In this document: positions 1 through 18,407 of the stretch, one piece after another
Layout of the letters: each line of letters starts with the position of its first letter
Position numbering within the stretch: the stretch's first letter is position 1
Source of the DNA: an uncultured virus (IMG/VR IMGVR_UViG_3300027542_000007)
Lineage: Duplodnaviria; Heunggongvirae; Uroviricota; Caudoviricetes
Virus record (IMG/VR): IMGVR_UViG_3300027542_000007
Location: 1-64,000 of that record
Length of the DNA: 64,000 nucleotides
Reading direction: 5' to 3' (one strand)
Program-made: the position numbers and the translations under genes
The notes under the pieces: model-generated
Told to the model about the DNA's origin: nothing
What the model saw: the letters and a program-made list of their open reading frames with translations, nothing else
Database searches by the model: none

Positions 1-822
1 AGTGATGCAGATGCAGATGGAGATCATATCTGTTGTTTATTATTGTCATTCTTTATATTGTATATGCCTGGTTTGGTAGAGTCTGGAAGGGTATATCGTG
101 CTGTTCCACCATTATACGGAATTACAATAAAGTCTAAGAATATATACTTCACTCGAAAGATAGACTACATTAAATATGTACAAAAGCTATTCATAAAGGA
201 TAACGATATTAAGTACGGAGATGGAAAAACTATATCCCAAACTGACCTTACAAAGTTATTATACTCGAATATAGATTATGTATACGAGATAGAAAGGATA
301 TCAAATCGATATGCAGTTTCCCCAGAGTTACTTGAAACAGTTCTGATGTTGCATTTAGCTAAGGCCGATTACAACAAGATGAAGAGAGATATAGAGAAAA
401 AATATAGATTTCTTAAAATAACTAATCAGAACGGCGTGCCAATGATTACCGGTTCCTTAGATTTAGCTATTCAGACATTATTCGTGACTGATGTGTTAAT
501 AAAGGATTGCTCAAGGATTATAAATATTCTTGTAAGCAATGCTAATGTGTCCTTTATGGTTAACAATAACAAAGTATTGTTGTATGGATTAATGAAAGGA
601 TTTGATGAATCTAGTCCTAAAAATTTAAGAAGGTTTAAAGGACTTGGAGAGATGGATGGTCCATCATTATACGAATCTACAGTTAATAAGAATACGCGTA
701 CGCTCATTCAGTTTACCACAGAAAATATTAAAGATACCATTGAGAGCATCAGGTACTACGAGAATAATAAAGATAAGCTTCTTGAGGGTATAACAGTATC
801 TAGATTTGATGTAATAGGATAA
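1..822 (+). CDS. gyrB: DNA gyrase/type IIA topoisomerase subunit B, C-terminal part (5' truncated)
   Basis: Frame open from base 1: SDADADGDHI (TOPRIM DxDxDG), PPLY, RFKGLGEM. Confidence 0.93.
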   Translation, partial: SDADADGDHICCLLLSFFILYMPGLVESGRVYRAVPPLYGITIKSKNIYFTRKIDYIKYVQKLFIKDNDIKYGDGKTISQTDLTKLLYSNIDYVYEIERISNRYAVSPELLETVLMLHLAKADYNKMKRDIEKKYRFLKITNQNGVPMITGSLDLAIQTLFVTDVLIKDCSRIINILVSNANVSFMVNNNKVLLYGLMKGFDESSPKNLRRFKGLGEMDGPSLYESTVNKNTRTLIQFTTENIKDTIESIRYYENNKDKLLEGITVSRFDVIG

Positions 823-842
823 AGTTAATTATTCTAAAGATC

Positions 843-942
843 AAATTTAATCTCATATCTTAAAATAATCTAAATTAAAATATAATAATCTTATACGTTG
901 AATGAATCTAGATAATAAAATCTTAATCTAAATCTATGATTG
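843..942 (+). repeat. Degenerate TIGR-like dual-repeat array (about 2.5 units, 38-nt period)
   Basis: AAATTTAATCT-catatctta-AAATAATCT-aaattaaaa-TATAATAATCT-tatacgttg-AATGAATCT-agataataa-AATCTTAATCT-aaatctatg-ATTG; same repeats and 9-nt spacing as 2873-3062. Confidence 0.75.
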
Positions 943-947
943 TAGCG

Positions 948-986
948 GGCTAGGAGAATATTCTCCTAGCCTATATTTTATTTTTT
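948..986 (+). terminator. Intrinsic terminator
   Basis: GGCTAGGAGAAT/ATTCTCCTAGCC inverted repeat followed by T-rich tract. Confidence 0.8.
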
Positions 987-1078
987 GTGAAATTGCTTAT
1001 TTTTGACCATATAATATTTAAGTGAATAAGAAATTCTATATTCAATAAAAATATTAAAATCTAAGGAGGAAACCAAAA

Positions 1079-1213
1079 ATGAAAGAAACAAAAGAAAGAA
1101 AAACAAGAAATGCAGAAGAAGAAGTTAGACAAGCAATTTTGCTGGGGGCTATGATTTTAAACTCGGCGTCTAACGTAAAAACCTATGTTCCTGCGGTAAA
1201 GTTGGCTAAGTAA
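1079..1213 (+). CDS. Small hypothetical protein (44 aa)
   Basis: AAGGAGGA RBS; MKETKERKTRNAEEEVRQAILLGAMILNSASNVKTYVPAVKLAK; below ORF-track cutoff. Confidence 0.6.
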   Translation: MKETKERKTRNAEEEVRQAILLGAMILNSASNVKTYVPAVKLAK

Positions 1214-1280
1214 ATTAAAAACTAAATAAAGAAAAAGACATTTAAAACATAATAAGACTAAATAAATGGAGGATTAAAAA

Positions 1281-1676
1281 ATGAAAAATGCTGTAGCAAG
1301 AATGAATCTCGTAGCAAATATCGGAACCAATTTCGGAGAGAAGAATGCTTCTCTGGTTAGGCAGATGATTAACCGTATGCAGCCGCACTTGTATGATAGA
1401 TTACCGTGTGTGTATGAAGATTCGTATTATGTGTATTGTCAGAAACGATTCTTAAACAAAGTAGCCGGCAGAGGAGTAAAGATGCTGGTTGTCTATGTTG
1501 ATGATATTGATTGCTTGGTATATGAAGCATTCAAAATTACAAAGAAGCTCTGCGACAGATTCAATATCAAATTGGTGGCATTTAAATGGAATGAGAAGTT
1601 GAATAGCTTTGAGAGATTCAATACTATGATAGAAGATCTTGAAACTATAAAGAGATCGAATTATAAGGTAAATTAA
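1281..1676 (+). CDS. Hypothetical protein
   Basis: GGAGG RBS, 131-aa ORF. Confidence 0.75.
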   Translation: MKNAVARMNLVANIGTNFGEKNASLVRQMINRMQPHLYDRLPCVYEDSYYVYCQKRFLNKVAGRGVKMLVVYVDDIDCLVYEAFKITKKLCDRFNIKLVAFKWNEKLNSFERFNTMIEDLETIKRSNYKVN

Positions 1677-1752
1677 CAATAATGAATCTCAGGGGCTCAA
1701 TCAATGAATTTGAGCCTCTTAACTTTATTTTATACAGAAAGGTTATAAAAAG

Positions 1753-2868
1753 ATGAAAAAAAATTTAAATGAAATACACGAAGTAGGAACTGCTGAATAT
1801 GAGGCTACTGGATTAGCGAAGATTTCTAAATCTGTAAAGGAGTCTATGGTTTATATTACTAAAGAGCAAATTAAAGCTATGGTTGACAGGGTTTACCAAG
1901 CTCAGCACGACAGGATTGAGTTGGAAGCGCAGCTTAAGGCGATTAACCAGGGAAGAGATAAAGATTCTGATACTGTAAAGAAAGCCGAAAAGAAGAATAC
2001 TATAACTGCTATGGAATGGCTCTGTCAAGATGCTGCAAACAGAGAAGCGCAGATTAAGGAAATGCTTAACGAGTATTGTAAAAGCGAGCCAGTTTGCGTT
2101 TGGGCTATGCAGATAAAAGGTATTGGGCCCGTAATAGCTTCATACCTGTGGGCACATTTAGACTTGAACAAATGCAACAGTGTCGGAGCTTTTCACTCTT
2201 ATGCTGGTTTAAACGATAATAATAACCCATGGTTAGGTGTAGAAAAGGCCACAACTCTTGTTAAAGAGGTTTATGAGGAGTTGGGATATGACAAGAAGCA
2301 TGAAGCAGATGAGCGCGTGTTAGCTGCAGTTTCGGAGAAGACCACTCGTCGTCCGAACATCATATCGAATGGCATTAATGTAGCTAAAAAGTCCAACAAG
2401 AAAAAGAAACTAACGGATATGGAGGCACTGATTAAATATCTTTCTAAGCCACCATATAATGAAGATCTGAAGACAATGTGTTGCTTTAAGATCCCTCGAT
2501 TGTCGTTTGCGATGAATTGCAATCGCGGTTCTTTATATGGGGAATTATATAAAGAAAGAAAGGCATATGAAGAACGTAAAAACAAGAATTTAGAATATGC
2601 TGATCAGGCGGCTGCTGTTTTGAAGAGAAGAAAAAAATATCTCAAAAAGAAGGAAATAAAAACCCTAGAGTCTGGAATGTTGTTGGATTCACATATCACC
2701 ACTCGGGCGTTAAGGAGATCAGTAAAAATCTTCTTATCTCATTTTTGGGAATGCGCTTATCGATATGAGCACAAGTCTAATAACAGAGCTCCATTATATG
2801 TCATGGACATTGCAAAGCATAAAGACTATATAGAACCTGAAGTTCCATTCCCGGATTTTAGCAAGTAA
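1753..2868 (+). CDS. IS110-related Nop-domain protein without nuclease domain; TasA-like TIGR-associated protein
   Basis: Coiled-coil, then IKGIGPVIASYLWAHL...SVGAFHSYAGL (IS110 Tnp/Nop helix-hairpin region), PPYNEDLK, C-terminal H..RALRR.VKIFLSHFW. No N-terminal GIDxxK RuvC motif. Dual-repeat array starts 4 nt after the stop codon. Confidence 0.85.
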   Translation: MKKNLNEIHEVGTAEYEATGLAKISKSVKESMVYITKEQIKAMVDRVYQAQHDRIELEAQLKAINQGRDKDSDTVKKAEKKNTITAMEWLCQDAANREAQIKEMLNEYCKSEPVCVWAMQIKGIGPVIASYLWAHLDLNKCNSVGAFHSYAGLNDNNNPWLGVEKATTLVKEVYEELGYDKKHEADERVLAAVSEKTTRRPNIISNGINVAKKSNKKKKLTDMEALIKYLSKPPYNEDLKTMCCFKIPRLSFAMNCNRGSLYGELYKERKAYEERKNKNLEYADQAAAVLKRRKKYLKKKEIKTLESGMLLDSHITTRALRRSVKIFLSHFWECAYRYEHKSNNRAPLYVMDIAKHKDYIEPEVPFPDFSK

Positions 2869-2872
2869 CCGT

Positions 2873-3062
2873 ATTGAATCTATGTTTCAGAATTATAATC
2901 TTCGCGGGAAAATGAATCTTAGGTTCTATATAGTAATCTGTTTTCGCGTATGAATCTGCGGCATTAAATTTTAATCTTGTTGGCAGAATGAATCTTATGT
3001 ATGATATAGTAATCTGTTCTCGTGTATGAATCTGCGGCATTAAATTTTAATCTTGTTGGCAA
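2873..3062 (+). repeat. TIGR-like guide-RNA array: 5 units of 38 nt (NATGAATCT - 9-nt spacer - WATWDTAATCT - 9-nt spacer)
   Basis: Units start at 2873, 2911, 2949, 2987, 3025; spacer pairs atgtttcag/tcgcgggaa, taggttcta/gttttcgcg, gcggcatta/tgttggcag, tatgtatga/gttctcgtg, gcggcatta/tgttggcaa. Confidence 0.9.
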
Positions 3063-3070
3063 AAGGTTTA

Positions 3071-3120
3071 AATAAATATAGGCTGAGAATAATAAATTTC
3101 TCAGCCTATATTTATTTTTT
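3071..3120 (+). terminator. Intrinsic terminator closing the Tas+array transcript
   Basis: AATAAATATAGGCTGAGA/TCTCAGCCTATATTTATT stem plus T tract. Confidence 0.8.
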
Positions 3121-3126
3121 GTATTA

Positions 3127-3134
3127 TATATTAT
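3127..3134 (+). promoter_or_regulatory. TATATTAT early-promoter-like motif; also at 14417, 18358, 33640, 52307, 57195 (+) and 51657-51664 (-)
   Basis: Recurs in intergenic DNA shortly upstream of genes including RNAP subunits and DNA polymerase; resembles phiKZ/AR9 early promoter cores. Confidence 0.6.
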
Positions 3135-3167
3135 ATTTATGATTATCTATGAAAGGAGGAGGTTATA

Positions 3168-3554
3168 GTGTACAATGGAGACGTTTGGTATATGATACCT
3201 GGATTTAATGGATATGAGATAAACGAGGACAAAGTAGTAAGGTCTATGAAAAGATTTAACGCAGTACCAGGATATCTTATTAAGTTATATAAAGGAGGTT
3301 ATTATGAACTCTCTGATAACCATTGTAAAAGGGTTAGAAAAACTCCTGATGAACTGTGGGATTTAGTTCAGGAGCAAATAAAAAATTCTAAAGCACAGGT
3401 TCGTGTACGCGAAGATTATCATAATCACATAAGTAGTAGAAACAAATTTAAAAATTTTTATCCTGAATCTATAGAAGAAGACAAATCATCTCCAGGCTTG
3501 AAAAGGGGGTCCGATGATAGATTTTATATGGATTTTTCAGGATTAATGAATTAG
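3168..3554 (+). CDS. NUMOD4-like motif protein without a recognisable HNH domain
   Basis: N-terminal WYMIPGFNGYEINEDKVVRS resembles NUMOD4; AGGAGG RBS. Confidence 0.5.
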   Translation: MYNGDVWYMIPGFNGYEINEDKVVRSMKRFNAVPGYLIKLYKGGYYELSDNHCKRVRKTPDELWDLVQEQIKNSKAQVRVREDYHNHISSRNKFKNFYPESIEEDKSSPGLKRGSDDRFYMDFSGLMN

Positions 3555-3896
3555 GAGGATGGAAAGTGAAAAAGGAATTCGTAGAAAGAAAGGTTTACAA
3601 TAATGTGATACCTGTAAAATTGGTTTCATCGTCAGTACCCATTTTGCTATAATGATTATATAAATAGGATAGAGAGGGCGCGAAATACAAAAAGTCTTCT
3701 TGATAATTATTTAAAATCATTAGGATTGTGTTATAAACAAAACAGGAAATGAGTATATTATCCATGATGATGGAAAATTATATTGTGATTATTATAAAAA
3801 CACCAAAATAGAGGATTATGAATATGAAATTGGCAAAATATACGATTTGGCATCGGCAATAACTATACATTAATTTTATAAAGGAGATGTAGATAA

Positions 3897-6287
3897 ATGC
3901 CAGAAACGATAATACAACAAGATGCTGCTGTATCACATAAGAATAGTATGGGGAACTATGCCATTGAAGTTAACCTTAGAAGATCAACTCCAGATGCAAA
4001 GGATGGATTGAAATTAGTTCATAGGCGTATATTGGACGTCATGTTTAATGATGAACCTTGTGCTGAGAAGTTAGTAAAAACGTCTGCAGTTGTAGGTACT
4101 ACGATGAAAAAGTCCCATCCGCACGGAGATGCTTCTATAGGAGATGCTATTAAACCGATGGTAAACTGGTGGGAGATAGGAATACCGTTAATAGATACAA
4201 GGTCGAACTATGGTAATTTCCACGGTAAAGGAGCAGCAGCACCTCGATATACAGAGATAAAATTATCACAATTCTGTTTGGATTGTGTAATTGGGGATTT
4301 AAGAAAATCCAAAAATATTGTAGATTGGGTAGATACTTTTGACTATAGGGATAAAGAGCCAGAATATTTTCCGGTAAAAGTCCCGTTGCTATTAATAAAT
4401 GGAACATTTGGTATTGGGGTTGGTATTAAAACTGAGATTCCTAAGCATCCTATTAATGAAGTCATAGATGCAACTCTTAGAGTTATAGAAGACCCGTCTG
4501 CCCCAGTGGTGTTGGTTCCCGACACTTGTATGCCATGTGAAATAGTAGAAGCGAATTGGAAAAAGATTTGCAACACTGGACATGGAAAGTATAAAGTAAG
4601 AGGTATTATTGATATTGAACAGAATAAAGATGGTTCATATTCACTGATAATAAAGTCAGTCCCAGATAGAGTATATTTCGATAGAGGGAATGCTGAGAAT
4701 GGTGGCGTTAAATATGTCATACTTAAAATGGTAGAAGAGAAGAAACTTCCTCAAATAATGAGTATTGACATAGATTCCAAAGGAACAGATATGAGAATAA
4801 TCATCCGTCTAAGAAAAGGAGCGGACCCCAATTTTGTGAGGGATATGATTTATAAAAACACTCAGATGGAAAGCCCATATAGTGTTAACTTTGAAACTCT
4901 AGATGGAATCAAACCCCTCAGGATGTCATATAAATCTTATATTGAGTTCTTTATAGAACAAGCAAAGACGAACAAGTTTAGACTATACGCCAATAAGCTT
5001 CAAAAGGCAAATACTCGATATCATAAGATAACCTCTTATATAGAGATATTAAAATCAGATAAGCTTCAGGAAATGCTCAAAGTAATGCAGACAATGAAGG
5101 AAATAAACGATAAAGCATTGATGGAAAAATTAATTAAGAAATTCGGCATTAGCGATATTCAAGCAGAGTTTTTAATTAATTCAACTTATAAGACTTCGTC
5201 AATAGCATATCGTTTATCATATGAGAAAGAGGCAAAAGCATTAGAAGAGGATATTAAGCATTTCATTGATATGATTACTATTGATGAATTGATTATTCAA
5301 GAGATAGTAGATGAGCTCAAATATTTTAAGAAGAAATATGGACAGCCTAGACGAAGTAAAGTTATAAAGATTAAAGACCTATCTCATATACCAGAAGGGC
5401 AATTTAATATCGTCATAACCGAAGCCGGGTTCGTCAGAAAATTATCTCCTTTTGATGCTGTTAATAACATTAAAGGAGATGCTCCTAAGCATGTTATGAC
5501 TGTAGAGAATACAGAGAATATATTGTTGTTTACAGCATCTGGTAAGGTATTTAATGTTCCAATACACAAGATTCCGGTAACGGAAAAAAGTGGAGTAGGA
5601 ACTGACTTAAGATTACTAGTAAAAGGATTAGTCAGTGATATAGTGGAAATCATGTATCTTCCCATGGTGAAAGAACGTGCTAATGATGCTAAGAATAAAT
5701 ACTTTATAATGACTCTTACCGAAGGTAATTGTATAAAGAAAATGGATTTAGATGATTTTCTTAATGTGCCGCCATCTGGAATCTTATTCACAAAGATTAA
5801 TTCTGGTGATAGAGTTATTGATGTAAAAATCGTGTCTAAGGATTCTGATATAATAGTATGGTCAGATAGGAAGGCTTTACGTATGAAAGCTGAATCTGTT
5901 CCTCACTTCAGAAGAAATACTTTAGGCGTTGGCGCTATGAGTGGTAAAGATCATATTGATGGATTTACTGAAGTTCGTAAAGATATTACTGATGTCTTAG
6001 TAATAACTAATTCTGGAAGGGTTAATCGATTTGATATTATAGGGTTGCCGTTATCAGATAGATATAAAGCCGGCTCCAATGTGGTTAAACTAGGAAAAAC
6101 TGATAGTATACATTCTATACTATGCTGTAATTCAAATGATATGGTACTAGTCACTTCTAAAGTTGGAGACACAGAATATCCCGTGAGTTCTATAAAGACG
6201 GGCTCTAGTATATCTGCTGGAGAAAAAGTAATACCTCTGAAAAATGATGTAATATTAAAAACAAAAATTCTCAGTAACCCGAACTAA
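3897..6287 (+). CDS. gyrA: DNA gyrase/type IIA topoisomerase subunit A
   Basis: PDAKDGLKLVHRRIL, HPHGD, catalytic AAAPRYTE, LLINGTFGIGVG, C-terminal beta-pinwheel-like repeats. Confidence 0.95.
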   Translation: MPETIIQQDAAVSHKNSMGNYAIEVNLRRSTPDAKDGLKLVHRRILDVMFNDEPCAEKLVKTSAVVGTTMKKSHPHGDASIGDAIKPMVNWWEIGIPLIDTRSNYGNFHGKGAAAPRYTEIKLSQFCLDCVIGDLRKSKNIVDWVDTFDYRDKEPEYFPVKVPLLLINGTFGIGVGIKTEIPKHPINEVIDATLRVIEDPSAPVVLVPDTCMPCEIVEANWKKICNTGHGKYKVRGIIDIEQNKDGSYSLIIKSVPDRVYFDRGNAENGGVKYVILKMVEEKKLPQIMSIDIDSKGTDMRIIIRLRKGADPNFVRDMIYKNTQMESPYSVNFETLDGIKPLRMSYKSYIEFFIEQAKTNKFRLYANKLQKANTRYHKITSYIEILKSDKLQEMLKVMQTMKEINDKALMEKLIKKFGISDIQAEFLINSTYKTSSIAYRLSYEKEAKALEEDIKHFIDMITIDELIIQEIVDELKYFKKKYGQPRRSKVIKIKDLSHIPEGQFNIVITEAGFVRKLSPFDAVNNIKGDAPKHVMTVENTENILLFTASGKVFNVPIHKIPVTEKSGVGTDLRLLVKGLVSDIVEIMYLPMVKERANDAKNKYFIMTLTEGNCIKKMDLDDFLNVPPSGILFTKINSGDRVIDVKIVSKDSDIIVWSDRKALRMKAESVPHFRRNTLGVGAMSGKDHIDGFTEVRKDITDVLVITNSGRVNRFDIIGLPLSDRYKAGSNVVKLGKTDSIHSILCCNSNDMVLVTSKVGDTEYPVSSIKTGSSISAGEKVIPLKNDVILKTKILSNPN

Positions 6288-6305
6288 TGGGTTACTGAGC
6301 TTATT

Positions 6306-7760
6306 TTGTTAGAAAGAGTGGTGAATACTTTGTTTGAAGCTAATGAATATTATTCGTTAGACGAAGAGTCGGCCCATTACAATTTATTAAAAATTATTAA
6401 GGGCTCTACTTCTTCTGCTAAAACACTGTTTGACATTTCTACTAAACTTGATAGAAGAATGATATTTGCAAATAATATTATTTCAATCAGATGGGGCGAT
6501 AACAAAAGAAATGGAGCATATATGTTATTTAATTCGATGGCAGATAGACGATTCTGTGCCCGCCGTCGTAATCTTAGAACGATACGTACTGATAAAATGC
6601 TAATAATAGGAATTGATAAGGAGGAGGCTAAATACGATATGAATGCTAATATTAAAAATAAAATATATGATTTTGCAAAGTTACAAATCTTAAATAAATT
6701 TCACACTAGTACAAGATTAAATTTAAATCAAGAATCAATGATTAGATTCTTAAAGTGGTTATCTAAATATGATAAAAAGTGGAAAACTCGTATTAAAAGA
6801 ATTTCAAAATACGAATATGAGTTTAGAATTGTCGATTATTTTATTATAATAGATGGTAATACCATAGTAAGGTTAAGAACCGGAGATGCTATAAAAAGTG
6901 CAATGAATACTTATGATATACTTAACGGAGGATCATTTATATCATATAAAACCATTCTTGTAGATATATATGGTAAACAATGCTTTGCCCTAATAAAGTT
7001 ATTTGATTCTTTAACAAGTTTTAGAAAAAGTATTGGGTGTTATACTGTATCTCATTCTTCTAATCGTGATCCTAATGTAGAAGTATATTATAAATCATTA
7101 AGTACAAGAAGCAAAGAAACCGTATTTATGAATAAAGATATAAATAACCGATTGTTTGCTCATATCGATAGGTTCCTTTCAAACAAGAATAAATATAAAT
7201 CCAGAGATTTGTTATATAAGACCGGAATCCTGTTATATGGAGAACCAGGAACTGGAAAATCTACAATATCTAGAATGATTTGTACAGAATATGATTTAGA
7301 TATGATTATTATTGATATGAGTAATTTTTGTAAAATGAATATTGATTATATTACCAACAGTATTAATGCTGATGGAAATATGTATGTGATAGTATTAGAA
7401 GACATTGATAGAGTAATGGATAATGCTGAAACTGATAAATATGAAGCTGTCAACAAATTACTTCAATTTTTGGATTCATCGTCCTCTCCTACTAATGTAA
7501 TATTTATAGCTACTACTAATCATTTAGATAGATTAGATCCTGCTATTACACGTGACGGTAGGTTTGATCTTGCGCTTAACGTAGGAAGTATTAACAAAGG
7601 ACCAGCTTTAAATATGATTAAATCGTTTGATGTGAATGAATCAGATGCAGAAGAATTATGGAATAAAAATAACGTTAACGGTACAGTAAATCCGGCAAAA
7701 TTACAAAATAAAATTTTGCAGTTCCAAGGAGAAAAAGAATTAGAATTACAGGAGGATTAA
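6306..7760 (+). CDS. AAA+ ATPase (BCS1-like C-terminal domain)
   Basis: GILLYGEPGTGKS, IVLEDID, TTNHLDRLDPAITRDGRFD. Confidence 0.9.
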   Translation: MLERVVNTLFEANEYYSLDEESAHYNLLKIIKGSTSSAKTLFDISTKLDRRMIFANNIISIRWGDNKRNGAYMLFNSMADRRFCARRRNLRTIRTDKMLIIGIDKEEAKYDMNANIKNKIYDFAKLQILNKFHTSTRLNLNQESMIRFLKWLSKYDKKWKTRIKRISKYEYEFRIVDYFIIIDGNTIVRLRTGDAIKSAMNTYDILNGGSFISYKTILVDIYGKQCFALIKLFDSLTSFRKSIGCYTVSHSSNRDPNVEVYYKSLSTRSKETVFMNKDINNRLFAHIDRFLSNKNKYKSRDLLYKTGILLYGEPGTGKSTISRMICTEYDLDMIIIDMSNFCKMNIDYITNSINADGNMYVIVLEDIDRVMDNAETDKYEAVNKLLQFLDSSSSPTNVIFIATTNHLDRLDPAITRDGRFDLALNVGSINKGPALNMIKSFDVNESDAEELWNKNNVNGTVNPAKLQNKILQFQGEKELELQED

Positions 7761-7763
7761 AAA

Positions 7764-8753
7764 ATGAAGAAAATAATTTGTTATCACCATAATGATCACG
7801 ATGGAATAGTAGCAGCAGCAGTACTTGCAGATTATTATAAGAGAGTTGAATCATCTATACCGCTGGATTTTCGTATGGTAGATTACTCATGCGATCTCGA
7901 ATTAGAAGACATAGATGCTGATGAAGTACAAGAAGTATTCTTTCTTGATTATTCGTTTAGTGGTGCAAAAAATTATGAGAATCTTATAAGATTGCATGAA
8001 AGATTTAAGATGGAAGGTAAAGGATCAAATATATATTGGATTGACCATCATAAGTCATCAATAGATAAAGACATTCCAGAAATAAGCGGATACAGAAGTA
8101 ATAGGTATTGTGGTGCTGTATTAACTTGGCTATTTCTTAATACTAGTAATGTAAATTTCCAAGAAGTTATTGAACATAGTGTGAAATTATCAAAAGTTCC
8201 AGAATTTCCAGTATTTTTGAAATATATTGATGACTATGATTGCTGGAAAAAACAGTTTCCGGAGACTAATGATATTCATTACGGATTTAACGTTATAGAT
8301 CCTCAAGATCCAGTATTCCGTATTTTATTATGGAGTAGTAATAAGGAAAAAGCATTAGAATTAATAGAACAATATAAACTTATTGGAGCTGGTGTGAAAA
8401 AATATTTAGAGTTTGAAAATAATAATTATCATGTAAATATGTATGGGTTTAAAGTTAACTTTTGCGGATATAATGCATTTGCGTTAAATCGTAAAGGAAA
8501 CAGCTTGATGTTTGGAAACTTAGTGGATAAATACGACATAGTTATCCCATTTTATTATAATGGTCTTAATGGTCAATGGAATTATTCATTGTTCACTAAT
8601 AGAGATAATTTAGATGTAGAGGAGTTAGCTGTTAAATTTGGAGGAGGAGGGCACAGGCAAGCTGCGGGATTCCAAACAGATAAATGCATATTTGAGAATT
8701 GTAATTATGCGGTGGATACCTTTACTAAAATTATAAATGCTCCGAATACGTAA
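7764..8753 (+). CDS. DHH/DHHA1 family phosphoesterase
   Basis: HHNDHDG, WIDHHKS, FGGGGHRQAAG. Confidence 0.9.
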   Translation: MKKIICYHHNDHDGIVAAAVLADYYKRVESSIPLDFRMVDYSCDLELEDIDADEVQEVFFLDYSFSGAKNYENLIRLHERFKMEGKGSNIYWIDHHKSSIDKDIPEISGYRSNRYCGAVLTWLFLNTSNVNFQEVIEHSVKLSKVPEFPVFLKYIDDYDCWKKQFPETNDIHYGFNVIDPQDPVFRILLWSSNKEKALELIEQYKLIGAGVKKYLEFENNNYHVNMYGFKVNFCGYNAFALNRKGNSLMFGNLVDKYDIVIPFYYNGLNGQWNYSLFTNRDNLDVEELAVKFGGGGHRQAAGFQTDKCIFENCNYAVDTFTKIINAPNT

Positions 8754-8760
8754 GAGGAAA

Positions 8761-8772
8761 AACATCCTGATA
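8761..8772 (+). promoter_or_regulatory. AR9-type late promoter motif AACA-N6-TA; also 13239, 17038, 33585, 37275, 54920, 60832 (+) and 42646-42657, 43467-43478, 48902-48913, 52240-52251 (-)
   Basis: Exact AACA-N6-TA spacing repeatedly upstream of portal, sheath, terminase and other genes; matches the described AR9 non-virion RNAP promoter consensus. Confidence 0.75.
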
Positions 8773-8794
8773 ATACATTATCAGGAGGTTTGGT

Positions 8795-9982
8795 ATGGCA
8801 ACTATAAGAGTCCCAATAACAAGCGTGGCTGTTAAGAAAATATATCCATTAGTAAGTAAGTCATTATCATCTAATACTGCTAAATATAAAAGGAATCTTC
8901 AAGAATTCTTTAATGCTCGGTCGAAAGATATTTACGATACTGCTCCTTATTCGAGATTGATGTTTGGAGAAGATGAAACCCAGGATTTTTTTAAATCAAT
9001 TAATATTACTAAGGAGCAGATTCGTGAGTTATTAACTGAAACCTATTATTGGAAAATGAACTTTTCTCCGGCAGCAGCTAAAGATGAATTGACTATGACC
9101 ATGATGATGATCATAAGATATTTTCTTAAAAAAGGAGACAAAGTTAATGCGGAGATATCTGCGATATATTTAGCATTTAGTGGTAGATTTTATCCGTCGA
9201 TTCACTACGGGCAGTTTCCAAAAGCTCAACCAAGTGAGTATAGACATATAATGGAATATGTAGTAAACAATATGCTTACTATGAAATTTGATCTCAAAAG
9301 GGAAGGAAGTTTATTTGGAGCTATACGATCTATATGTAGAACTTGGCTAACAAAATACGGTCCTACTATAAAGGGAGATATGGACGATGAAGAGAATGCT
9401 GAAATTATTAAACAGCTTCACGGTAGAATTAAATCATTCATAATTAATATAGCATCATTATACTATGAAGCTCATGAGAATAAAAACTATCTGACATACG
9501 ATTCTGATATGGATAATGAGGATTCGTTTAGACTTGCAGATAATGATTCTCTCCGAATCGAAAGAGCAGTGGAAAATGCAATGAATTTCATAAATAATAA
9601 TAACGTAGACTTTAGACTATGTACATATGCATCTGATACTAATGTGAAAGTGAACGAAGTCAAATCTATCATAGAAGGAATTCAAGATGATAAAGTATGT
9701 CTGGGAGAGATTAAGGAGTTGTTTCGCATTATAATCGCCGAGTATTTTCAAGTTTCTACGAATAAAAACCTTGCAAGTACAGATTTTGTTTCTAAATCTA
9801 TAACTTCAAAACCTAATACCAAGAATAAAAATATCCTTAGACAAAAGGAAATAATCGAAGGGTGGCTAGATGAAAAATCTCCACAATATAGGAAGAGAAG
9901 AAGCCGTCCAGAAACGAAATCGTCTTATTACAAATCTATACTAAAATATTATGTATTGGTTATCAACAAAGCTAATAGATAA
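8795..9982 (+). CDS. Hypothetical protein (late promoter; possibly virion-associated)
   Basis: 395-aa ORF, AGGAGG RBS. Confidence 0.8.
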   Translation: MATIRVPITSVAVKKIYPLVSKSLSSNTAKYKRNLQEFFNARSKDIYDTAPYSRLMFGEDETQDFFKSINITKEQIRELLTETYYWKMNFSPAAAKDELTMTMMMIIRYFLKKGDKVNAEISAIYLAFSGRFYPSIHYGQFPKAQPSEYRHIMEYVVNNMLTMKFDLKREGSLFGAIRSICRTWLTKYGPTIKGDMDDEENAEIIKQLHGRIKSFIINIASLYYEAHENKNYLTYDSDMDNEDSFRLADNDSLRIERAVENAMNFINNNNVDFRLCTYASDTNVKVNEVKSIIEGIQDDKVCLGEIKELFRIIIAEYFQVSTNKNLASTDFVSKSITSKPNTKNKNILRQKEIIEGWLDEKSPQYRKRRSRPETKSSYYKSILKYYVLVINKANR

Positions 9983-10102
9983 AAAGGGGCTACACTCACA
10001 CGAGTGTAGCCTATATTTATTTTTTGTGAAATTGCTGGAAGGTAATTATATAATATTATAGTGAAATACAAAAATATTATAATTCCATAGGAGGAAAGAC
10101 AA

Positions 10103-10624
10103 ATGAGAGAAATGATGTTATTAAAAGAATTAGGAGACATAGCGGCAAAGCATCGGATTGATTGTTTTATCATATTGGGTGAATCTGTAGTGCATGTAGA
10201 AGACACAAAAAATGAAGATCCTAATAATCTTTCGCGTGATGCATATCAATTTATGGTAAATTGGAATACTATGCTGGGGAACAAGTATGATACAGAATAT
10301 TACGATTCGGCCAATGCTTGTCGTGGATGGTTAAAAATAGGAATAGACGGATATAAAACTCCAAGCAACAGCAACATTAGTCCTATTAGCTGCATTCTTC
10401 CAGAAAGAGCACATGTTACATCGATTTCAGAAATAGAATGGATGGATTTAGCGGAGGAATATCTTGACCTTCTTCAATTGCCATATCTTGTAGTAACCTG
10501 CGATGAATTCATAGATAAGAGCTGTGATAACAGATTATTCAATGCAATTATCCATGATTTAAAGGCAGAGTTAAAGGAAATCAAAAAGGAGGAATTGTCT
10601 GATGAACACGAAGAAGAATTTTAA
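10103..10624 (+). CDS. Hypothetical protein
   Basis: AGGAGG RBS, 173 aa. Confidence 0.75.
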   Translation: MREMMLLKELGDIAAKHRIDCFIILGESVVHVEDTKNEDPNNLSRDAYQFMVNWNTMLGNKYDTEYYDSANACRGWLKIGIDGYKTPSNSNISPISCILPERAHVTSISEIEWMDLAEEYLDLLQLPYLVVTCDEFIDKSCDNRLFNAIIHDLKAELKEIKKEELSDEHEEEF

Positions 10625-11264
10625 ATCCTATATTCCGATTGAAACATTTTTGTTCAACAATGATAAGATATTCTACACTGGAGCCGAGATAAAGGACGAA
10701 ATTATATCAGTGATGGAAGCCACGAAGGATAAAGAGAATAGAGTAAAGGAATACCAGATTGCTTCTTACATGTATAAGAAGTTTGTAGATACTAATAGCC
10801 CATTAAGCGACCAGTCTAAATACCAAATAAATGTAAATAGACTAGTATTCAATATCCCATATGATGAGTTTTTAATGGTTAATTTTAACAGTCATGTGAA
10901 AATCATTAGAAACCGTAAGGTTCGATACCAAAATCTTAAAGTCACAGAAAATAAATTCTTCTTAGATTTTCTTAAGTATTTGAGGAGTAGAGGAATCGAG
11001 TTGACCGATTTTGCGCTGATTCAGTACAATTCTGGAGAGAAAAGGCTTGTGTCCTCTAACGAAGAATTTTCTAGATGGATTTATATAATTGATGAGCTGG
11101 AAGGAGTATTTGGGGTAACTGATTACGTGGATAACTTATCATTGAAAGATGTATCTGATGTTCTTATGAGTAGAGAATATCATTATATGAGGGAACTAAA
11201 CCTGTTAGAAGAAAGAGGTGTAAATATCAGGATATATGACAAAACAAAGAGATACAAGTACTAA
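10602..11264 (+). CDS. Hypothetical protein
   Basis: 220 aa, overlapping operon gene with RBS. Confidence 0.75.
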   Translation: MNTKKNFKSYIPIETFLFNNDKIFYTGAEIKDEIISVMEATKDKENRVKEYQIASYMYKKFVDTNSPLSDQSKYQINVNRLVFNIPYDEFLMVNFNSHVKIIRNRKVRYQNLKVTENKFFLDFLKYLRSRGIELTDFALIQYNSGEKRLVSSNEEFSRWIYIIDELEGVFGVTDYVDNLSLKDVSDVLMSREYHYMRELNLLEERGVNIRIYDKTKRYKY

Positions 11265-11649
11265 TTACTACCATTTATCACAATCTGGTAGGATTAAAAT
11301 TGCTGTTCCTAAGGTATCGTCTATGGCGGTACCATCATTCGAAGATACGAGTATACCAAGAGTTAGTTTTGCTCCTTCTATAGATCAATGTATATCCGCA
11401 TTGATTCCGGCGGTTAGAACTATCTTTTATGTGTACGTTCCAGAAGACCTGAAAAATTTTCAAATATATAAACCCAAAATTTATCAGGTAAGAGATTGTA
11501 AAGAAACTGGAGAAGTTTGGTCATTGAAACGAGTACGTGTAAAATGTATTGGAAAAATCAAAATCACAAAATCATTAGGGTATGAAAAACATAAGAACTA
11601 TAGAGGGGTATTTCATATTCATAGATATGATTGGGAATGGATAGAATAA
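11236..11649 (+). CDS. Hypothetical protein, possible ADP-ribosyltransferase-like fold
   Basis: YYHLS...IPRVSFAPSI...TGEVW pattern. Confidence 0.4.
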   Translation: MTKQRDTSTNYYHLSQSGRIKIAVPKVSSMAVPSFEDTSIPRVSFAPSIDQCISALIPAVRTIFYVYVPEDLKNFQIYKPKIYQVRDCKETGEVWSLKRVRVKCIGKIKITKSLGYEKHKNYRGVFHIHRYDWEWIE

Positions 11650-12065
11650 TACTAATGCGAAGGAGTGTAAGATTACAGATGATAAAGGTACCAGCAAGCA
11701 AGATTAAAGAAATAAAATATGATGGTAAAAATTTATTATTTATATCTACCGGATTTTTTGATATTGTTATAGCTGTTTCTGGAAATCCAAGTACAATTAA
11801 GAGTGTTTTGGCATTGAGAGAAAATAAATGTATGACTATTTGTGCTACTATGGGTATAAATAAAATCGAAGTAAGGCTAAACGATGGGCCTGTCCCAAAG
11901 TCCGTTTCCATGGAAGATTTTAAGTTTATGTATGCATCTACAAAAATAAGGATTTCTACTAATGAAATTCTTATGCATAGTGAATTCTATGGAGAGATAA
12001 TAGATCCAACTCTTAGTATTTCTTTAAAGGAGGAAAACGGAGAATTAGTAACCATATTAAAATAA
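11631..12065 (+). CDS. Hypothetical protein (start may be 11679)
   Basis: Operonic ORF; AAGGAG upstream of the internal ATG. Confidence 0.65.
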   Translation: MGMDRIILMRRSVRLQMIKVPASKIKEIKYDGKNLLFISTGFFDIVIAVSGNPSTIKSVLALRENKCMTICATMGINKIEVRLNDGPVPKSVSMEDFKFMYASTKIRISTNEILMHSEFYGEIIDPTLSISLKEENGELVTILK

Positions 12066-12087
12066 TAAAAAGAAAAGGAGAACAATT

Positions 12088-12534
12088 ATGATTCATGGTA
12101 TGTATAACACAACAAGAACTAAGCTTAGCATTAAGAGAGGTAGATTTTTTGGAAAGATCAAGGTGAAACTCGAATGTAGGCATATCCTTACGGGCTTAAA
12201 GACCGATATTATTTTCTACTCATTGGCATCAAAGAGATCAATCGATAGTATCAGCAGTCGGGTTAGTGAAAACAATCCTTCGGCTAAAGGAGACAGCATT
12301 AGCATCCTTGGGTCGGTTACAATTAACGTTGTAGACACTTTTTATGGAAAACCTTTTGGAGTTCTGCGCATAAATCCATGTAAGAAAATTAATTTACTTG
12401 GGCTAAACGATATTACGGTTTTGGATTTTGAAGACCGCAAACCTGTCAAAGACAGCGAAGGATTCTTATTCCGGTTAATGCTTAATAATAAAAATTGTGC
12501 AGGAAAATTAGAAGATCTGATAATCGAAGGTTAA
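12088..12534 (+). CDS. Hypothetical protein
   Basis: AAGGAG RBS; followed by terminator hairpin 12543-12573. Confidence 0.7.
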   Translation: MIHGMYNTTRTKLSIKRGRFFGKIKVKLECRHILTGLKTDIIFYSLASKRSIDSISSRVSENNPSAKGDSISILGSVTINVVDTFYGKPFGVLRINPCKKINLLGLNDITVLDFEDRKPVKDSEGFLFRLMLNNKNCAGKLEDLIIEG

Positions 12535-12643
12535 CAAAAAGGAAGAGGGACAGAAATATGCTGTCCCTCTTTTATTTATAATTGTAGTAAAATAAAAATA
12601 GTTATACATATAATTGATAGAAAATAAAGCATAGTGCTAATAA

Positions 12644-12715
12644 TGGGCATTCGCCAAGAGGTAAGGCACGGGACTTTGACTCCTGAATTCGTTGGTTCGA
12701 ATCCAATATGCCCAG
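12644..12715 (+). tRNA. tRNA-Gln(TTG)
   Basis: TGGGCAT/ATGCCCA acceptor stem, CT-TTG-AC anticodon loop, GGTTCGAATCC T arm; CCA not encoded. Confidence 0.93.
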
Positions 12716-13088
12716 TTCGGCTGAGTGGGTTAATCTCTGCCGAATCGTTGTCGGTAATTGCTGGGGGGCAGTAACGATACCGGCCTATGGTGCACGGCCG
12801 CTAAGAAAAGCCGGCAGTATCTGCGTAGAATGCAGGGTGCGGCTATGGCGGTTAGAGTACAGCAGTGCTATACCAAAATGTAATGAGTGTTAATCGTGTA
12901 GCGATTGGGGTTAGAGCTCGCTCCGAAAGAGAATCGCAGTGTAAGTGTTAACACCTGCTCCGCAAGTGGCGGTAATTGAATGGTAATGTGTAAGACTCAG
13001 CACTGAATCAAAAGAAAAGAGTCTGAGATATAGCTCGCCGAGAGAGGCAACAGCAGATGCAGTTAGCATACGTTGGCGATCTTAACCC
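12716..13088 (+). ncRNA. Unidentified highly structured ~370-nt RNA between two tRNAs
   Basis: GC-rich island with many stems (TTCGGC/GCCGAA, GTGTTAA/TTAACAC, GCGATT/AATCGC, AGACTC/GAGTCT), GNRA-type loops, and 5'-loop GGGTTAA complementary to 3'-end TTAACCC. Confidence 0.7.
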
Positions 13089-13163
13089 GGGCCATTAGCT
13101 CAGCTTGGTTAGAGCAACCGGCTCATAACCGGTCGGTCATAGGTTCGAGTCCTATATGGCCCA
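13089..13163 (+). tRNA. tRNA with CAT anticodon, most likely tRNA-Ile2 (lysidine type)
   Basis: GGGCCAT/ATGGCCC acceptor, CCGG-CTCATAA-CCGG anticodon arm; body resembles Bacillota Ile2 rather than initiator Met. Confidence 0.9.
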
Positions 13164-13281
13164 TCGAAATCGGGTTTTTGGTTTCCTTATTATTTCTGGG
13201 TGTCGGTAATCCGGCACCCGGATTATTTTTTCTCCTTAAACATTACATTAATATACGCATTACATAAGGAGGAATTATAGT

Positions 13282-13704
13282 ATGCTTTTAAGAAATGAAA
13301 GTCGAGTTAGGCATTTTGTGGAAATTAATTTGACATATGATGATAAGGAAAGTAATAATCTAATAGTTAATGAAGGAGATAACGTAGCTATCAGTTTTAG
13401 AAAAAATGGAAGGATAGCTATGGGAGAAGGAAAGATTACAGAAATAAAGGTGCAGCATAGAGCAAGATGTAACGGTTTTGGAATGAAGGAAACTGCCATC
13501 TTAGAAATAGATATGTCTGGTGATTGCAATTCACAAACTGAAAGTGTTGATATACGAGATATAATAGACATTAGAAAATTAGTTCCAAAGCATTGTCATA
13601 AATGCGATAAAGTAGATCCTAGCTTTATAGTTAAGCCTAAAGATAAAGATACGATTGGAGTGGTCGGGATGCCAATATCTCCAGGGGGTGTAATAGGTGA
13701 ATAA
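13282..13704 (+). CDS. Hypothetical protein, apparent paralog of 43526-44149
   Basis: EGDNVAISF..GKITEIKV..LEIDMS..DIRDIIDIR resembles VGEMVSIQF..GRVMDIKV..VLDCS..KMIDILQIR. Confidence 0.75.
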   Translation: MLLRNESRVRHFVEINLTYDDKESNNLIVNEGDNVAISFRKNGRIAMGEGKITEIKVQHRARCNGFGMKETAILEIDMSGDCNSQTESVDIRDIIDIRKLVPKHCHKCDKVDPSFIVKPKDKDTIGVVGMPISPGGVIGE

Positions 13705-14404
13705 AAAGCAAAGAGAAGAAATAGAAGAACTTATAATAAGTTCTTTTAATATCTTGGACAAATCTGGTACTAATTCAGAGTATTACAAAGATTTGTTTAG
13801 TAAAATGAGTGATTCTCAATTTCATTCATTTATTGCAAAGAAATATCCTGGTAAATTTTATTATCGCCCATCAGTTACTGAACCTACGATGGATGACATA
13901 GAAGAAGCATTGAACTTTATTGGTGTTCCCTTAAGCGAGAAGATTAATATGCCTTGGGTTTATGAGGATAAGGATGGAAATCCAGTGCAGTCTAAAGAAT
14001 GTACAGTTGTATATTTACATCATAAAAAGGTCCAGCAATTCATAACAAAGAAAAATAAATGGGCTATTTCTGTATCTAACAGAGATATGAAGGGTGGGCG
14101 CTTAATTGGAGCAGATAAAGGTGCTGTAACATCAGATAGAGAATTTGAATCTATGGAAGTTCAGTCTATGAATAATACCGTTGACGAGTTCTCTACGTTT
14201 AGGGCGGACTCTATGAAGTCTAAGAATATGGCTAATGCAATAATTGGGACTACCGGTGTATTACATTTAGATGATGTAAAGGTAGATAAAGATGATTTCC
14301 TATCTAAGAACCTAATGAGTGCTTATATGATTGGAGCCCATTTGAATACGAATATCGTAAATGAGGGTAATTATACTCCGACTACATTAAGATCGAAATC
14401 TTAA
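13697..14404 (+). CDS. RNA polymerase beta C-terminal fragment (probably virion RNAP)
   Basis: VYLHHKKVQQFITKK and GAVTSDREFESM resemble beta Y..KL.H.V..K and GGQRFGEME. Confidence 0.6.
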   Translation: MNKKQREEIEELIISSFNILDKSGTNSEYYKDLFSKMSDSQFHSFIAKKYPGKFYYRPSVTEPTMDDIEEALNFIGVPLSEKINMPWVYEDKDGNPVQSKECTVVYLHHKKVQQFITKKNKWAISVSNRDMKGGRLIGADKGAVTSDREFESMEVQSMNNTVDEFSTFRADSMKSKNMANAIIGTTGVLHLDDVKVDKDDFLSKNLMSAYMIGAHLNTNIVNEGNYTPTTLRSKS

Positions 14405-14447
14405 TATTTTCATTTATATATTATATTTTTGAAGGAGGTGAGTATAA

Positions 14448-14564
14448 ATGGAACAGCAGTACGGAACGGTTATTCAGGAACAAGGGGATTTGGGGTTAGG
14501 CTTATATCCCATCAATGAATCCCAGGACGAGCAGCAAAAAGAAGATAAAGAGGATAAAAAGTAA
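14448..14564 (+). CDS. Small acidic protein (38 aa)
   Basis: TATATTAT motif, AAGGAGGTG RBS, MEQQYGTVIQEQGDLGLGLYPINESQDEQQKEDKEDKK, followed by a hairpin. Confidence 0.6.
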   Translation: MEQQYGTVIQEQGDLGLGLYPINESQDEQQKEDKEDKK

Positions 14565-14674
14565 GTACATATGGGTATGGGAGGGATTCCATACCCATAA
14601 AATTTTCTGATAGTAACACATTAAGAAATGTGTAACTATAAATCAATAACACAATAAAATGGAGGTATAAAAGA

Positions 14675-15913
14675 ATGAATGTAAAATGTATTGGTATTGG
14701 AGCCGCAGGAAATAAGGCGGCAATTACTCTGGTGGAAAAGAAAGTACTGGCACAGGATAATGTATTATTAATCAATTCTACATTAAAGGATATCCCTGCA
14801 GATTACAAGGGGCTGGCTGTGGAATATGTTAATTCTTATGGCGGCTGCGGGAAAGAAAGAAAAAATGCGTATGATCTTGCAGTAAACTCCATTAAGGCTG
14901 GAAAGATCCCGCTGGATGATTTTCTCAATATTGGAAAAAGCAATGAGGCGGAGCTGGTAATCATTGTAACTTCAACTGAAGGCGGTACAGGTTCTGGTTC
15001 ATCAATTATTATTGGTAAGTATATTAAGAGCCATTACGACATCGATGTGCATATGTTCGGATTTGTTGGGTTCAAGACCGACCCAAGGGGTCTGAAGAAT
15101 ACAGTAGAGTGGTTTTCGGAGCTGCAGGAAGATTTTGCGGTGGAAGCTGTTGAGAACAGCAAGTACTTACCAGAATGCCGTGGAAACAAGATCAAAGCAG
15201 AGAAGATGGCGAACGAAGACTTTGCTAACAAGATTGGCATTCTGATCGGAAATACAATCAGATATTCAGAGCACAATATCGACCCGACTGATCTTCTTAA
15301 AGTGTCTGCAAAGCAGACTGGATTTATGGTAATTGAATCTGCGAATTTTGAGAAGATCAAAAACAAAGAACAGTTCGAGGCGATGGTTGTCCGTATGATT
15401 GACGATAGCAAATCAGTTGATGTGAGCAATGTTAATGCTAAGAAATCTGCGGTGTTCCTGAATATTAGTCCGGCTTCTACTGATTTTATCTCTTATGAAG
15501 AAATCATTACCGAGAGGTATGGGGAGAGATATGAGAATTACGAGCATATTCAGCACGAAGCTGATATGCCAGAGTTCTTTGCGATTATCATTGCTGGTAT
15601 GAAAATGCCGGTAGAAGAAATCCAAAGAGTATATACCGAATATAAAGACCGCATGGGGCAGGTTGACCGTTCAGGAGACGACTTCTTTGCATCTGTAAGT
15701 GCATTGTCGTTCGATGATGATGATGATCTGTCGATCCATGGCAAAAAGAAAAAGACTATGAGCGACGATGAGTTCTTTGCGAATCTCGATAAACCAGTTG
15801 ATTCTCCGTCTGCTTCAACAAAAGTCGTGCGGCCATCTGCTGAAGGGAGTGAGTCCAGTGGGAAATTCTCTAATGTAAGAGTAGAGAAAGCAGACATCGC
15901 AAAAGAATATTAG
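14675..15913 (+). CDS. Tubulin/FtsZ-family GTPase (PhuZ/TubZ-like)
   Basis: IGIGAAGNKA, GGCGKE, signature GGTGSG, NIDPTDL; long charged C-terminal tail. Confidence 0.9.
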   Translation: MNVKCIGIGAAGNKAAITLVEKKVLAQDNVLLINSTLKDIPADYKGLAVEYVNSYGGCGKERKNAYDLAVNSIKAGKIPLDDFLNIGKSNEAELVIIVTSTEGGTGSGSSIIIGKYIKSHYDIDVHMFGFVGFKTDPRGLKNTVEWFSELQEDFAVEAVENSKYLPECRGNKIKAEKMANEDFANKIGILIGNTIRYSEHNIDPTDLLKVSAKQTGFMVIESANFEKIKNKEQFEAMVVRMIDDSKSVDVSNVNAKKSAVFLNISPASTDFISYEEIITERYGERYENYEHIQHEADMPEFFAIIIAGMKMPVEEIQRVYTEYKDRMGQVDRSGDDFFASVSALSFDDDDDLSIHGKKKKTMSDDEFFANLDKPVDSPSASTKVVRPSAEGSESSGKFSNVRVEKADIAKEY

Positions 15914-15921
15914 GAGGAATT

Positions 15922-16785: not shown

Positions 16786-16792
16786 TAAGTAT

Positions 16793-16987
16793 AACTAATC
16801 TTAATGAGAAAATTATAATCTGATGGAGCAAATGAATCTATATAGTGGGATTTTAATCTAGTGTCATGCATGAATCTACCCTTCAAAATTATAATCTAGG
16901 CAGAAAGATGAATCTAACCATGATAATTTTAATCTGAAACTCCAAATGGATCTCAACATCAGAATTTTAATCCGGATTGTTAAATGG
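16793..16987 (+). repeat. Orphan TIGR-like array, 5 units of 38 nt
   Basis: Units at 16793, 16831, 16869, 16907, 16945; spacer pairs taatgagaa/gatggagca, atatagtgg/agtgtcatg, acccttcaa/aggcagaaa, aaccatgat/gaaactcca, caacatcag/ggattgtta; same repeats as 2873-3062. Confidence 0.9.
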
Positions 16988-16989
16988 TT

Positions 16990-17026
16990 ACCAGAGTACC
17001 TAAATGGGTACTCTGGTTTATTTTTT
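16990..17026 (+). terminator. Intrinsic terminator after the orphan array
   Basis: ACCAGAGTACC/GGTACTCTGGT stem plus T tract. Confidence 0.8.
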
Positions 17027-17068
17027 ATCATCTCCGAAACATTTTAATAAAATGAAAGGAGAGATAAG

Positions 17069-18304: not shown

Positions 18305-18407
18305 AGTATATGGGAGATGCCTCACCGAGGCATCTCTCGAAACAATTCATTTGAATATATATTATATTCATGAAATAAAATACGAATGAAAGAGGGACGA
18401 AAATACT

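Follow-up and report, generated by a model that had tools for sequence, protein, structure and literature searches.

We analyzed a stretch of 64,000 nucleotides (nt), hereafter the window, that covers positions 1–64,000 of the IMG/VR record IMGVR_UViG_3300027542_000007 from an uncultured virus of the Caudoviricetes, and assign its open reading frame (ORF) at 1753..2868 (forward strand) as tasA, encoding a nuclease-less TIGR-associated Nop-domain protein (TasA) of 371 amino acids (aa). Most likely, this protein is the effector of a dual-repeat TIGR-Tas system and acts as an RNA-guided DNA roadblock that does not cut. TIGR-Tas systems were first described in 2025 by Faure et al., in whose scheme TasA is the solo Nop-domain form of Tas (PMC12045711). 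Members of the present clade, marked by the motifs NDNNxPWLG and PPYN, appear in the protein table of that paper, and repression by TasA proteins has been reported; the window thus holds no new kind of system, and its TasA is rather typical of a newly described family. What stands out, judging by alignments and models, is a large folded insertion in the wedge loop of a dual-repeat TasA clade. The locus offers a natural setting for work on the role of nuclease-less TasA: its dual-repeat system looks complete, and the phage turns up in mouse-gut metagenomes from several studies.

Identity and fold of TasA

The reading frame upstream of tasA is closed by a stop 10 codons before its ATG. The encoded protein matched the NCBIfam model NF052498 (TIGR_Tas_endo) with 137.1 bits, above the family cut-off of 100 (E 8e-40), although the word "endonuclease" in the model name is a misfit for TasA. 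This alignment placed residues 41–334 on profile positions 2–213 of 215, leaving a surplus of about 82 residues. A phmmer search against PDB sequences returned TIGR-TasR (9MTY, 1e-8) and TasH (1e-5). An AlphaFold model built on an alignment of 30 relatives reached a mean predicted local distance difference test score (pLDDT) of 86.2 and a predicted template modelling score of 0.78, and its best ten Foldseek matches in the PDB were all TasH or TasR, with probability 1.00. Superposition by VIA-align yielded Z 19.1 for TasH (228 aligned residues; root-mean-square deviation (rmsd) 5.0; model residues 34–367 on TasH 65–309), Z 17.4 for TasR (195 aligned residues; rmsd 2.9; 36–366 on TasR 111–322) and Z 12.1–12.5 for the IS110 bridge-RNA recombinases IS621 and ISCro4 (34–362 on target residues 125–321). 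The best structural matches, SpTasH (9W03/9W04) and TaTasR (9MTY) at Z 17–19, extended over the coiled coil and the C-terminal domain, while the N-terminal HNH or RuvC domain of these proteins is missing from the window TasA. Nop5, Nop56/58 and Prp31 were not among the best 50 VIA-align matches listed, which carries no evidential weight. An earlier interpretation made from the letters alone (the sequence-only reading) had proposed a TasA-type protein, and the family score, the similarity to TasH and the adjoining TIGR arrays described below all bear this out.

In the model, the N-terminal 33 residues (1753..1851, forward strand, as are all features of the locus given below) were poorly ordered (pLDDT 40–70) and lie where TasR and TasH have their RuvC or HNH domain. 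They are followed by a coiled-coil hairpin (residues 34–111, 1852..2085; helices 37–67 and 86–111) that aligned with the coiled coil of TasH and TasR, the Tas dimerization element, and through which TasA would, by homology, dimerize as well. All structural alignments began at model residues 33–36, corresponding to TasH 64–66, TasR 111 and IS621 125, and hence past the nuclease domains of these proteins. Since just 33 poorly ordered residues precede this point, we identify the product as TasA; these residues before the coiled coil leave no room for a RuvC or HNH domain. A further, smaller expansion adds about 32 residues (271–311, 2563..2685) at "insertion 2" and is common to TasH, which aligned throughout this stretch in the profile alignment, whereas residues 262–269 of TaTasR span profile positions 263–302.

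Absence of DNA cleavage sites and retention of a putative RNA-processing dyad

A Pfam search of TasA at E ≤ 1 returned neither RuvC nor HNH, but just a DUF (domain of unknown function) and a Transposase_20 match below threshold, the latter with 17.7 bits against a cut-off of 21.3 (residues 119–154 on profile positions 5–41 of 87). This finding, together with the AlphaFold model and the structural alignments, agrees with the earlier statement that a DEDD RuvC N-terminus and an HNH motif are absent; a DEDD RuvC-like N-terminal domain of the IS110 type was not found in TasA. The NCBIfam IS110 model NF033542 gave 33.3 bits, short of its cut-off of 140, and covered residues 37–154 only. In keeping with this boundary, the profile of the 30 relatives aligned with IS621 only as far as FAGL236. 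The catalytic S241 of IS621 sits in the loop after that motif (PMC11208158), and its counterpart in TasA, N154–G162, is free of serine; the replacement of the IS110 serine loop after YAGL, which the sequence-only reading had pointed out, is thus confirmed. The window TasA resembles IS621 and ISCro4 in its coiled coil and, as far as the YAGL motif, in the first Tnp-domain helices, but lacks the DEDD RuvC domain, carries a wedge instead of an S241-type serine loop and falls below the IS110 family cut-off. A cryptic nuclease fold was looked for as well. No invariant acidic or His residues were present in the wedge module among the 30 aligned relatives, and neither conservation nor a PDB structure search nor a comparison with the ESM Atlas gave any sign of a DNA nuclease there. 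By any site recognizable in its sequence, TasA cannot cut or recombine DNA.

The assumption that the protein is unable to cut therefore stands for DNA, where RuvC, HNH and serine nucleophile are all missing, but not for RNA. In SpTasH, a Tyr/His dyad (Y289/H296) cuts the precursor of the guide RNAs (pre-tigRNA) (PMC13421893). The C-terminal Tyr/His loop is common to both proteins: Y349 and H356 of the window TasA (2797..2820) aligned with this dyad and are predicted to form a metal-independent pre-tigRNA processing dyad. Among the 30 aligned relatives, H356 was invariant and Y349 was conserved in at least 90%, in line with the dyad of the dual-repeat class. TasA thus probably cuts its own guide precursor, and because the counterpart of the dyad is kept, "cannot cut" applies to DNA only.

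An enlarged wedge after the YAGL motif

In sequence order, HSYAGL153-NDNNNPWLG162 is followed by 70 residues (163–232) and P233-PYN236. Profile alignment and the AlphaFold model delimited this region as a wedge of 85 aa (G152–N236, 2206..2460), in which a conserved base (NDNNNPWLG ... SKPPYN) surrounds a four-helix module. The profile of the 30 relatives showed how it relates to TaTasR: TasR 137–215 ends at YAG-YSVDN, facing YAGLNDNN, TasR 230–262 resumes with K230 at the residue right after PPYN, and TasR 269–318 faces residues 311–362. The wedge of TaTasR has been defined as G210–K230 (preprint 10.64898/2026.09.09.750476), and residues 210 and 230 of the aligned TaTasR sequence are indeed G and K. 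On this alignment, the insertion after YAGL is an enlarged Tas wedge loop, 85 aa here against 21 aa in TaTasR and thus four times as long. In the structure of TasR, the wedge loop parts each displaced DNA strand from its partner (PMC12045711), and in SpTasH the HNH domain docks on a surface made up of the wedge loop and a β-hairpin (PMC13421893).

The 70 residues between the flanking motifs were modelled as four helices (162–176, 187–197, 201–214 and 222–231), with the block at pLDDT 84–97 in the full-length model. They contain 16 K/R and 11 D/E residues (net charge +5, isoelectric point 9.5) and include the run KKSNKKKK. The earlier description as roughly 75 helical, basic residues was therefore close: the module counts 70 residues, is mostly helical and is mildly basic. 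Modelled alone on a 6-sequence alignment, the wedge reached pLDDT 61, and the best PDB matches of this model (Z 5.8) were small four-helix proteins (mitoribosomal, acyl carrier protein-like and EF-hand-like), under the stated background for helical models. No chain in this PDB search reached Z ≥ 8, and no nuclease was among the top 50. A weak HTH_3-like structural match from the ESM Atlas, also obtained with the wedge alone, stayed under the bar (template modelling score 0.43) and serves as a lead only.

Conservation was confined to the base of the wedge. N154, D155, N156, N157, W160, L161, G162, P234 and Y235 were invariant in 30/30 aligned relatives (35–68% identity), so on this alignment the NDNNxPWLG and PPYN flanks are not a product of chance; from G162 to P234 there was no invariant column, and V170 and L226 alone were conserved in at least 90%. 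An exhaustive search retrieved 1,672 representative proteins at E ≤ 1e-3, 174 of them at E ≤ 1e-30, and many of its top matches were split in two with the break near residues 170–225, that is, within the wedge. Using the motifs as anchors, we measured the wedge in 238 of the 274 relatives of at least 250 aa (the other 36 misfit the anchors and were excluded). Lengths ranged from 17 to 271 aa: 3 proteins had a wedge of 17 aa, 149 fell into the class of 40–119 aa and 86 into that of 120–279 aa. The insertion reported earlier is thus real and lies at the position of the S241 loop, but it is no peculiarity of this protein, being an enlarged wedge that exceeds 30 aa in 235 of the 238 measured relatives. 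Because the three compact proteins (P0206, P0240 and P0255) read YAGL-x8-12-RP(W/Y)N, the helical module can be understood as a true insertion at the tip of a short loop. In the related viral loci, modules of 79–88, 165–177, 209 and 277 aa lie between the flanking motifs; none of them contains an embedded array and none was named by Pfam. The array period stayed constant at 35–38 over the wedge size classes, and in this small sample wedge size does not track guide length.

The preprint portrays dual-repeat Tas proteins as compact Nop cores that vary little, and large insertions come up there for stem-loop clades only (10.64898/2026.09.09.750476). With its wedge of 85 aa and a folded four-helix module, the window TasA departs from this description. 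As far as alignment and modelling can tell, dual-repeat Tas proteins also bear large folded wedge insertions, and the clade is an exception to the published generalization. The wedge can accommodate inserted segments of up to about 250 residues, which makes it useful for engineering Tas fusions.

A different addition was seen in four relatives of 614–680 aa (P0158, P0186, P0192 and P0199), in which an HTH_3 domain of the Cro/C1 type (Pfam E 2.8e-10 to 2.8e-5) is fused N-terminally to the TasA body. This predicted architecture fits a repressor role.

TIGR arrays and their transcripts

Published TIGR arrays consist of two alternating repeats of 8–12 nt with constant spacers and a terminal terminator (PMC12045711). 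The arrays of the window show the same alternating short repeats, constant spacers and terminators. Array B (2874..3063) begins 6 nt past the tasA stop codon and comprises five units with a period of 38, each composed of ATGAATCT, a 10-nt spacer A, ATNNTAATCT and a 10-nt spacer B; it is followed by an intrinsic terminator (3070..3117) with a 20-pair stem and a T-run. Array A (845..939) lies directly 3′ of the gene for the large subunit of topoisomerase II and contains a canonical unit, a second unit whose edge repeat is degenerate, and more remnants upstream, with AT-rich spacers. The tail of its intrinsic terminator (947..972) resembles that of array B. Array C (16794..16983), with five units of the same repeat family, is separated from tasA by 14 kb and flanked by an unnamed ORF and an operon with an RNA-polymerase beta-like gene, and a hairpin with a T-run was read from the sequence after it at about 16990–17026. 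Both repeats have AU at the start and AAUCU at the end. On two other viral contigs (L023/L025, 601–1098), which may be other parts of this genome, the same repeats make up another eleven units in two runs. In total, at least 11 guides were parsed from this record and 11 from the other contigs; the repertoire is spread over several sites, each 3′-UTR-like (UTR, untranslated region) and terminator-ended. An Rfam search at E ≤ 1 over positions 1–20000 left the arrays unmatched and gave one meaningless miRNA-family match on the terminator hairpin.

Arrays with a period of 35–38 and at least 5 copies stood beside tas in 12 of 17 related viral loci, or in 10 of 15 distinct ones, as two pairs gave identical output; L003, L005, L008 and L019 had at most 4.3 copies at these periods. 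Set against the known TIGR-TasA systems (FpTasA, PlTasA and MbTasA; PMC12045711; 10.64898/2026.09.09.750476; 10.64898/2026.08.11.744272), the window system shares a solo nuclease-less Nop protein with a coiled coil, neighboring arrays in which two short repeats alternate, spacer length is fixed and a terminator closes the series, and carriage by a phage. It differs in its units (38 nt with 10-nt spacers against typically 36 nt with 9-nt spacers) and in having arrays at three or more genome sites.

Within array B, units 2–3 and 4–5 form a 76-nt tandem duplication (2912–3063; Tandem Repeats Finder, 92% matches); 1 spacer base separates unit 3 from unit 5, and 6 spacer bases separate unit 2 from unit 4. 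This pattern looks like growth by duplication followed by spacer drift and bears on the question of how TIGR arrays gain spacers. A contig from sequencing run X17 matched the 3′ two thirds of tasA at about 93% identity and past 2868 was unlike the array of the window, a hint, from contigs and a single record, that arrays vary between strains while tasA is kept. Array B had little or no contig cover in runs X9 and X17, and an odd joint of 930 to 3039 in an X9 contig is probably repeat-caused.

The 3′ end of the tasA coding sequence (2825–2852) is also predicted to pair with the junction of units 1 and 2 of array B (2907–2934), giving an RNA hairpin (2825..2934) with 28-nt arms that are 79% complementary. 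In this one genome, the fold of 2815–2945 had a z of –4.7, and 0/200 shuffles were equally stable. Here the two spacers would pair to a single strand, and the hairpin therefore does not represent a Tas target site; it may reflect RNA-level control of processing, or chance.

Proposed mechanism and alternative explanations

Taken as an RNA-guided roadblock, the system would work as follows. The arrays would be transcribed as 3′ extensions of the genes upstream of them, and a TasA dimer, held together by the coiled coil, would bind the two alternating repeats of one unit. Y349 and H356 would then cut the precursor inside the edge repeat to release tigRNAs of about 38 nt, whose two 10-nt spacers would each pair with a different strand of a 20-bp DNA site. 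The wedge of 85 aa after YAGL would keep the displaced strands separate, probably by means of its conserved base (NDNNxPWLG and PPYN), and the four-helix, mildly basic module is most likely a lineage-variable addition that stabilizes the opened DNA. Lacking RuvC, HNH and a serine nucleophile, the complex would stay bound to the uncut site and keep a target in the host or a rival element from being transcribed or replicated. For other TasA proteins, tight binding to target DNA and reversible reporter repression without cleavage have been reported (preprint 10.64898/2026.09.09.750476). The silencing proposed in the sequence-only reading is therefore an established function of such proteins, and for the window TasA we infer it from them.

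Several observations weigh against this reading. The TasA repressors tested experimentally belong to the stem-loop class, not to the dual-repeat class. The units of 38 nt with 10-nt spacers deviate from the canonical 36 nt with 9-nt spacers, and the loop repeat lacks the G present in the edge repeat, which makes the box C/D assignment uncertain. None of the listed sequencing runs with near-identical DNA is recorded as RNA. The role given to the helical module is read from its position, the solo model having reached pLDDT 61 and a best Z of 5.8. Finally, no target emerged when 12 guides were compared with the 75-kb record and 22 guides with 218 kb of this phage and related loci. Published Tas cleavage leaves an 8-nt 3′ overhang (PMC12045711); by geometric reasoning, the published arrangement of a target therefore places the reverse complement of spacer B after spacer A, and a control arrangement was searched alongside it. 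No target could be named in the 218 kb, as the best composite matches had 3 mismatches and involved AT-rich spacers, and at 4 mismatches the published arrangement (12 matches) did no better than the control (19 matches).

The variability of the wedge might mean more than a stabilizing role. If the wedge of this clade were a cassette site, with a conserved base and an exchangeable module of about 0–250 residues that confers a lineage-specific activity at opened DNA, the module might grip the displaced strands, recruit a partner or resist a counter-measure, and nuclease-less Tas would be a modular platform rather than a plain roadblock; we regard this as a tentative and rather unlikely extension. 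An enlarged wedge could likewise be a docking platform: its helical module would bring in an effector encoded by a separate gene, for instance a nuclease, a protein that blocks polymerases or a host factor, and the system would then have a role beyond occupying its DNA site. The docking of the HNH domain of SpTasH on wedge loop and β-hairpin (PMC13421893) offers a precedent, the exchange of the wedge middle in discrete size classes (17–271 aa, 238 relatives) is the pattern of an adaptor domain, and the module is confidently folded in the full-length model, not a disordered linker. However, no conserved neighbor was found. The ORFs starting at 1079, 1281 and 3168, which the sequence-only reading had put forward as partners, proved poor candidates: they had 0 homologues across 19 related loci, in 11 of which topoisomerase II genes recur, and no convincing family match in Pfam, PHROG, NCBIfam and PADLOC scans. 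Nor did a scan of the window's 57 ORFs of at least 90 aa (E ≤ 1e-5 or looser) reveal a ParB-like or other known Tas partner. The module offers no invariant residue between G162 and P234, V170 and L226 alone reaching 90% or more, and published TasA proteins function without accessory proteins (PMC12045711). Recruitment through the wedge is thus distinctly unlikely.

Nop-domain relatives such as the box C/D small nucleolar ribonucleoproteins act on RNA, and the system might accordingly act on RNA or on its own expression, for instance on the tasA-array transcript or on phage messages, instead of foreign DNA. The predicted hairpin between the tasA 3′ end and array B (z –4.7) and the 3′-UTR positions of the arrays in three different operons would suit such a function. 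The hairpin was seen in one genome only, however, no self-target was found within the 75-kb record (about one third of the genome), and TasR is inactive on RNA substrates, Tas complexes recognizing DNA on both strands (PMC12045711), which leaves action on RNA very improbable. That tasA is an ordinary or decaying IS110-family transposase gene might be read from phrog_4285, labelled "transposase" (E 2.5e-26), from the weak Transposase_20 match and from the fold related to IS621 and ISCro4 (Z about 12). Against this stand the IS110 score far below its cut-off and limited to residues 37–154, the absence of the DEDD RuvC domain and of a serine at the position of the S241 loop, and the behavior of the gene. 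It is single-copy within the 75-kb record, it is flanked by TIGR arrays rather than insertion-sequence ends, and seven strain variants of TasA with 8–11 residue differences were every one intact at 371 aa. Topoisomerase II genes beside tasA recurred in 11 of 19 related loci (L009–L018 and L021), although the TasA proteins are only 33–50% identical. Judged by synteny, copy number and intact variants, tasA is unlike an insertion sequence; in contrast to IS110 elements, it is not mobile by the evidence of synteny and copy number. An identity as IS110 transposase is extremely improbable and was ruled out as far as sequence can show. We therefore retain the RNA-guided, non-cutting roadblock as the best explanation.

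Genome setting and neighboring genes

The source record comprises 74,859 bases with an estimated completeness of 30%. The same TasA protein occurred on metagenomic contigs of up to 231–233 kb, and the host element is thus a large phage of about 230 kb. Near-identical DNA was contained in mouse-gut metagenome runs from several studies, and a collection of annotated phages gave no match to 8 kb of the locus (megablast) or to the TasA protein (tblastn). The two subunit genes of a split topoisomerase II (1–822 and 3897–6287) lie around tasA. Other products encoded in the window are an AAA ATPase, the RNA-polymerase beta-like protein, a NAD ligase, a tail tube protein and a prohead protease.

TasA and the ORFs starting at 1079, 1281 and 3168 gave no match in PADLOC. 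The ORF at 3168–3554 (128 aa) showed weak likeness to NUMOD4 and a homing-endonuclease N-terminal region only (E 0.037 and 0.0037) and has no HNH domain; located between the topoisomerase genes, it may be what is left of a free-standing homing endonuclease.

Farther from tasA, a family-B DNA polymerase of the "divergent family B" type is distributed over two ORFs with the exonuclease and the polymerase domain (34210–36120 and 52456–54615), which are 16 kb apart with a block of structural genes on the opposite strand in between. Two tRNA genes were located at 12644–12715 and 13089–13163 (Rfam RF00005, 60.5 and 70.4 bits).

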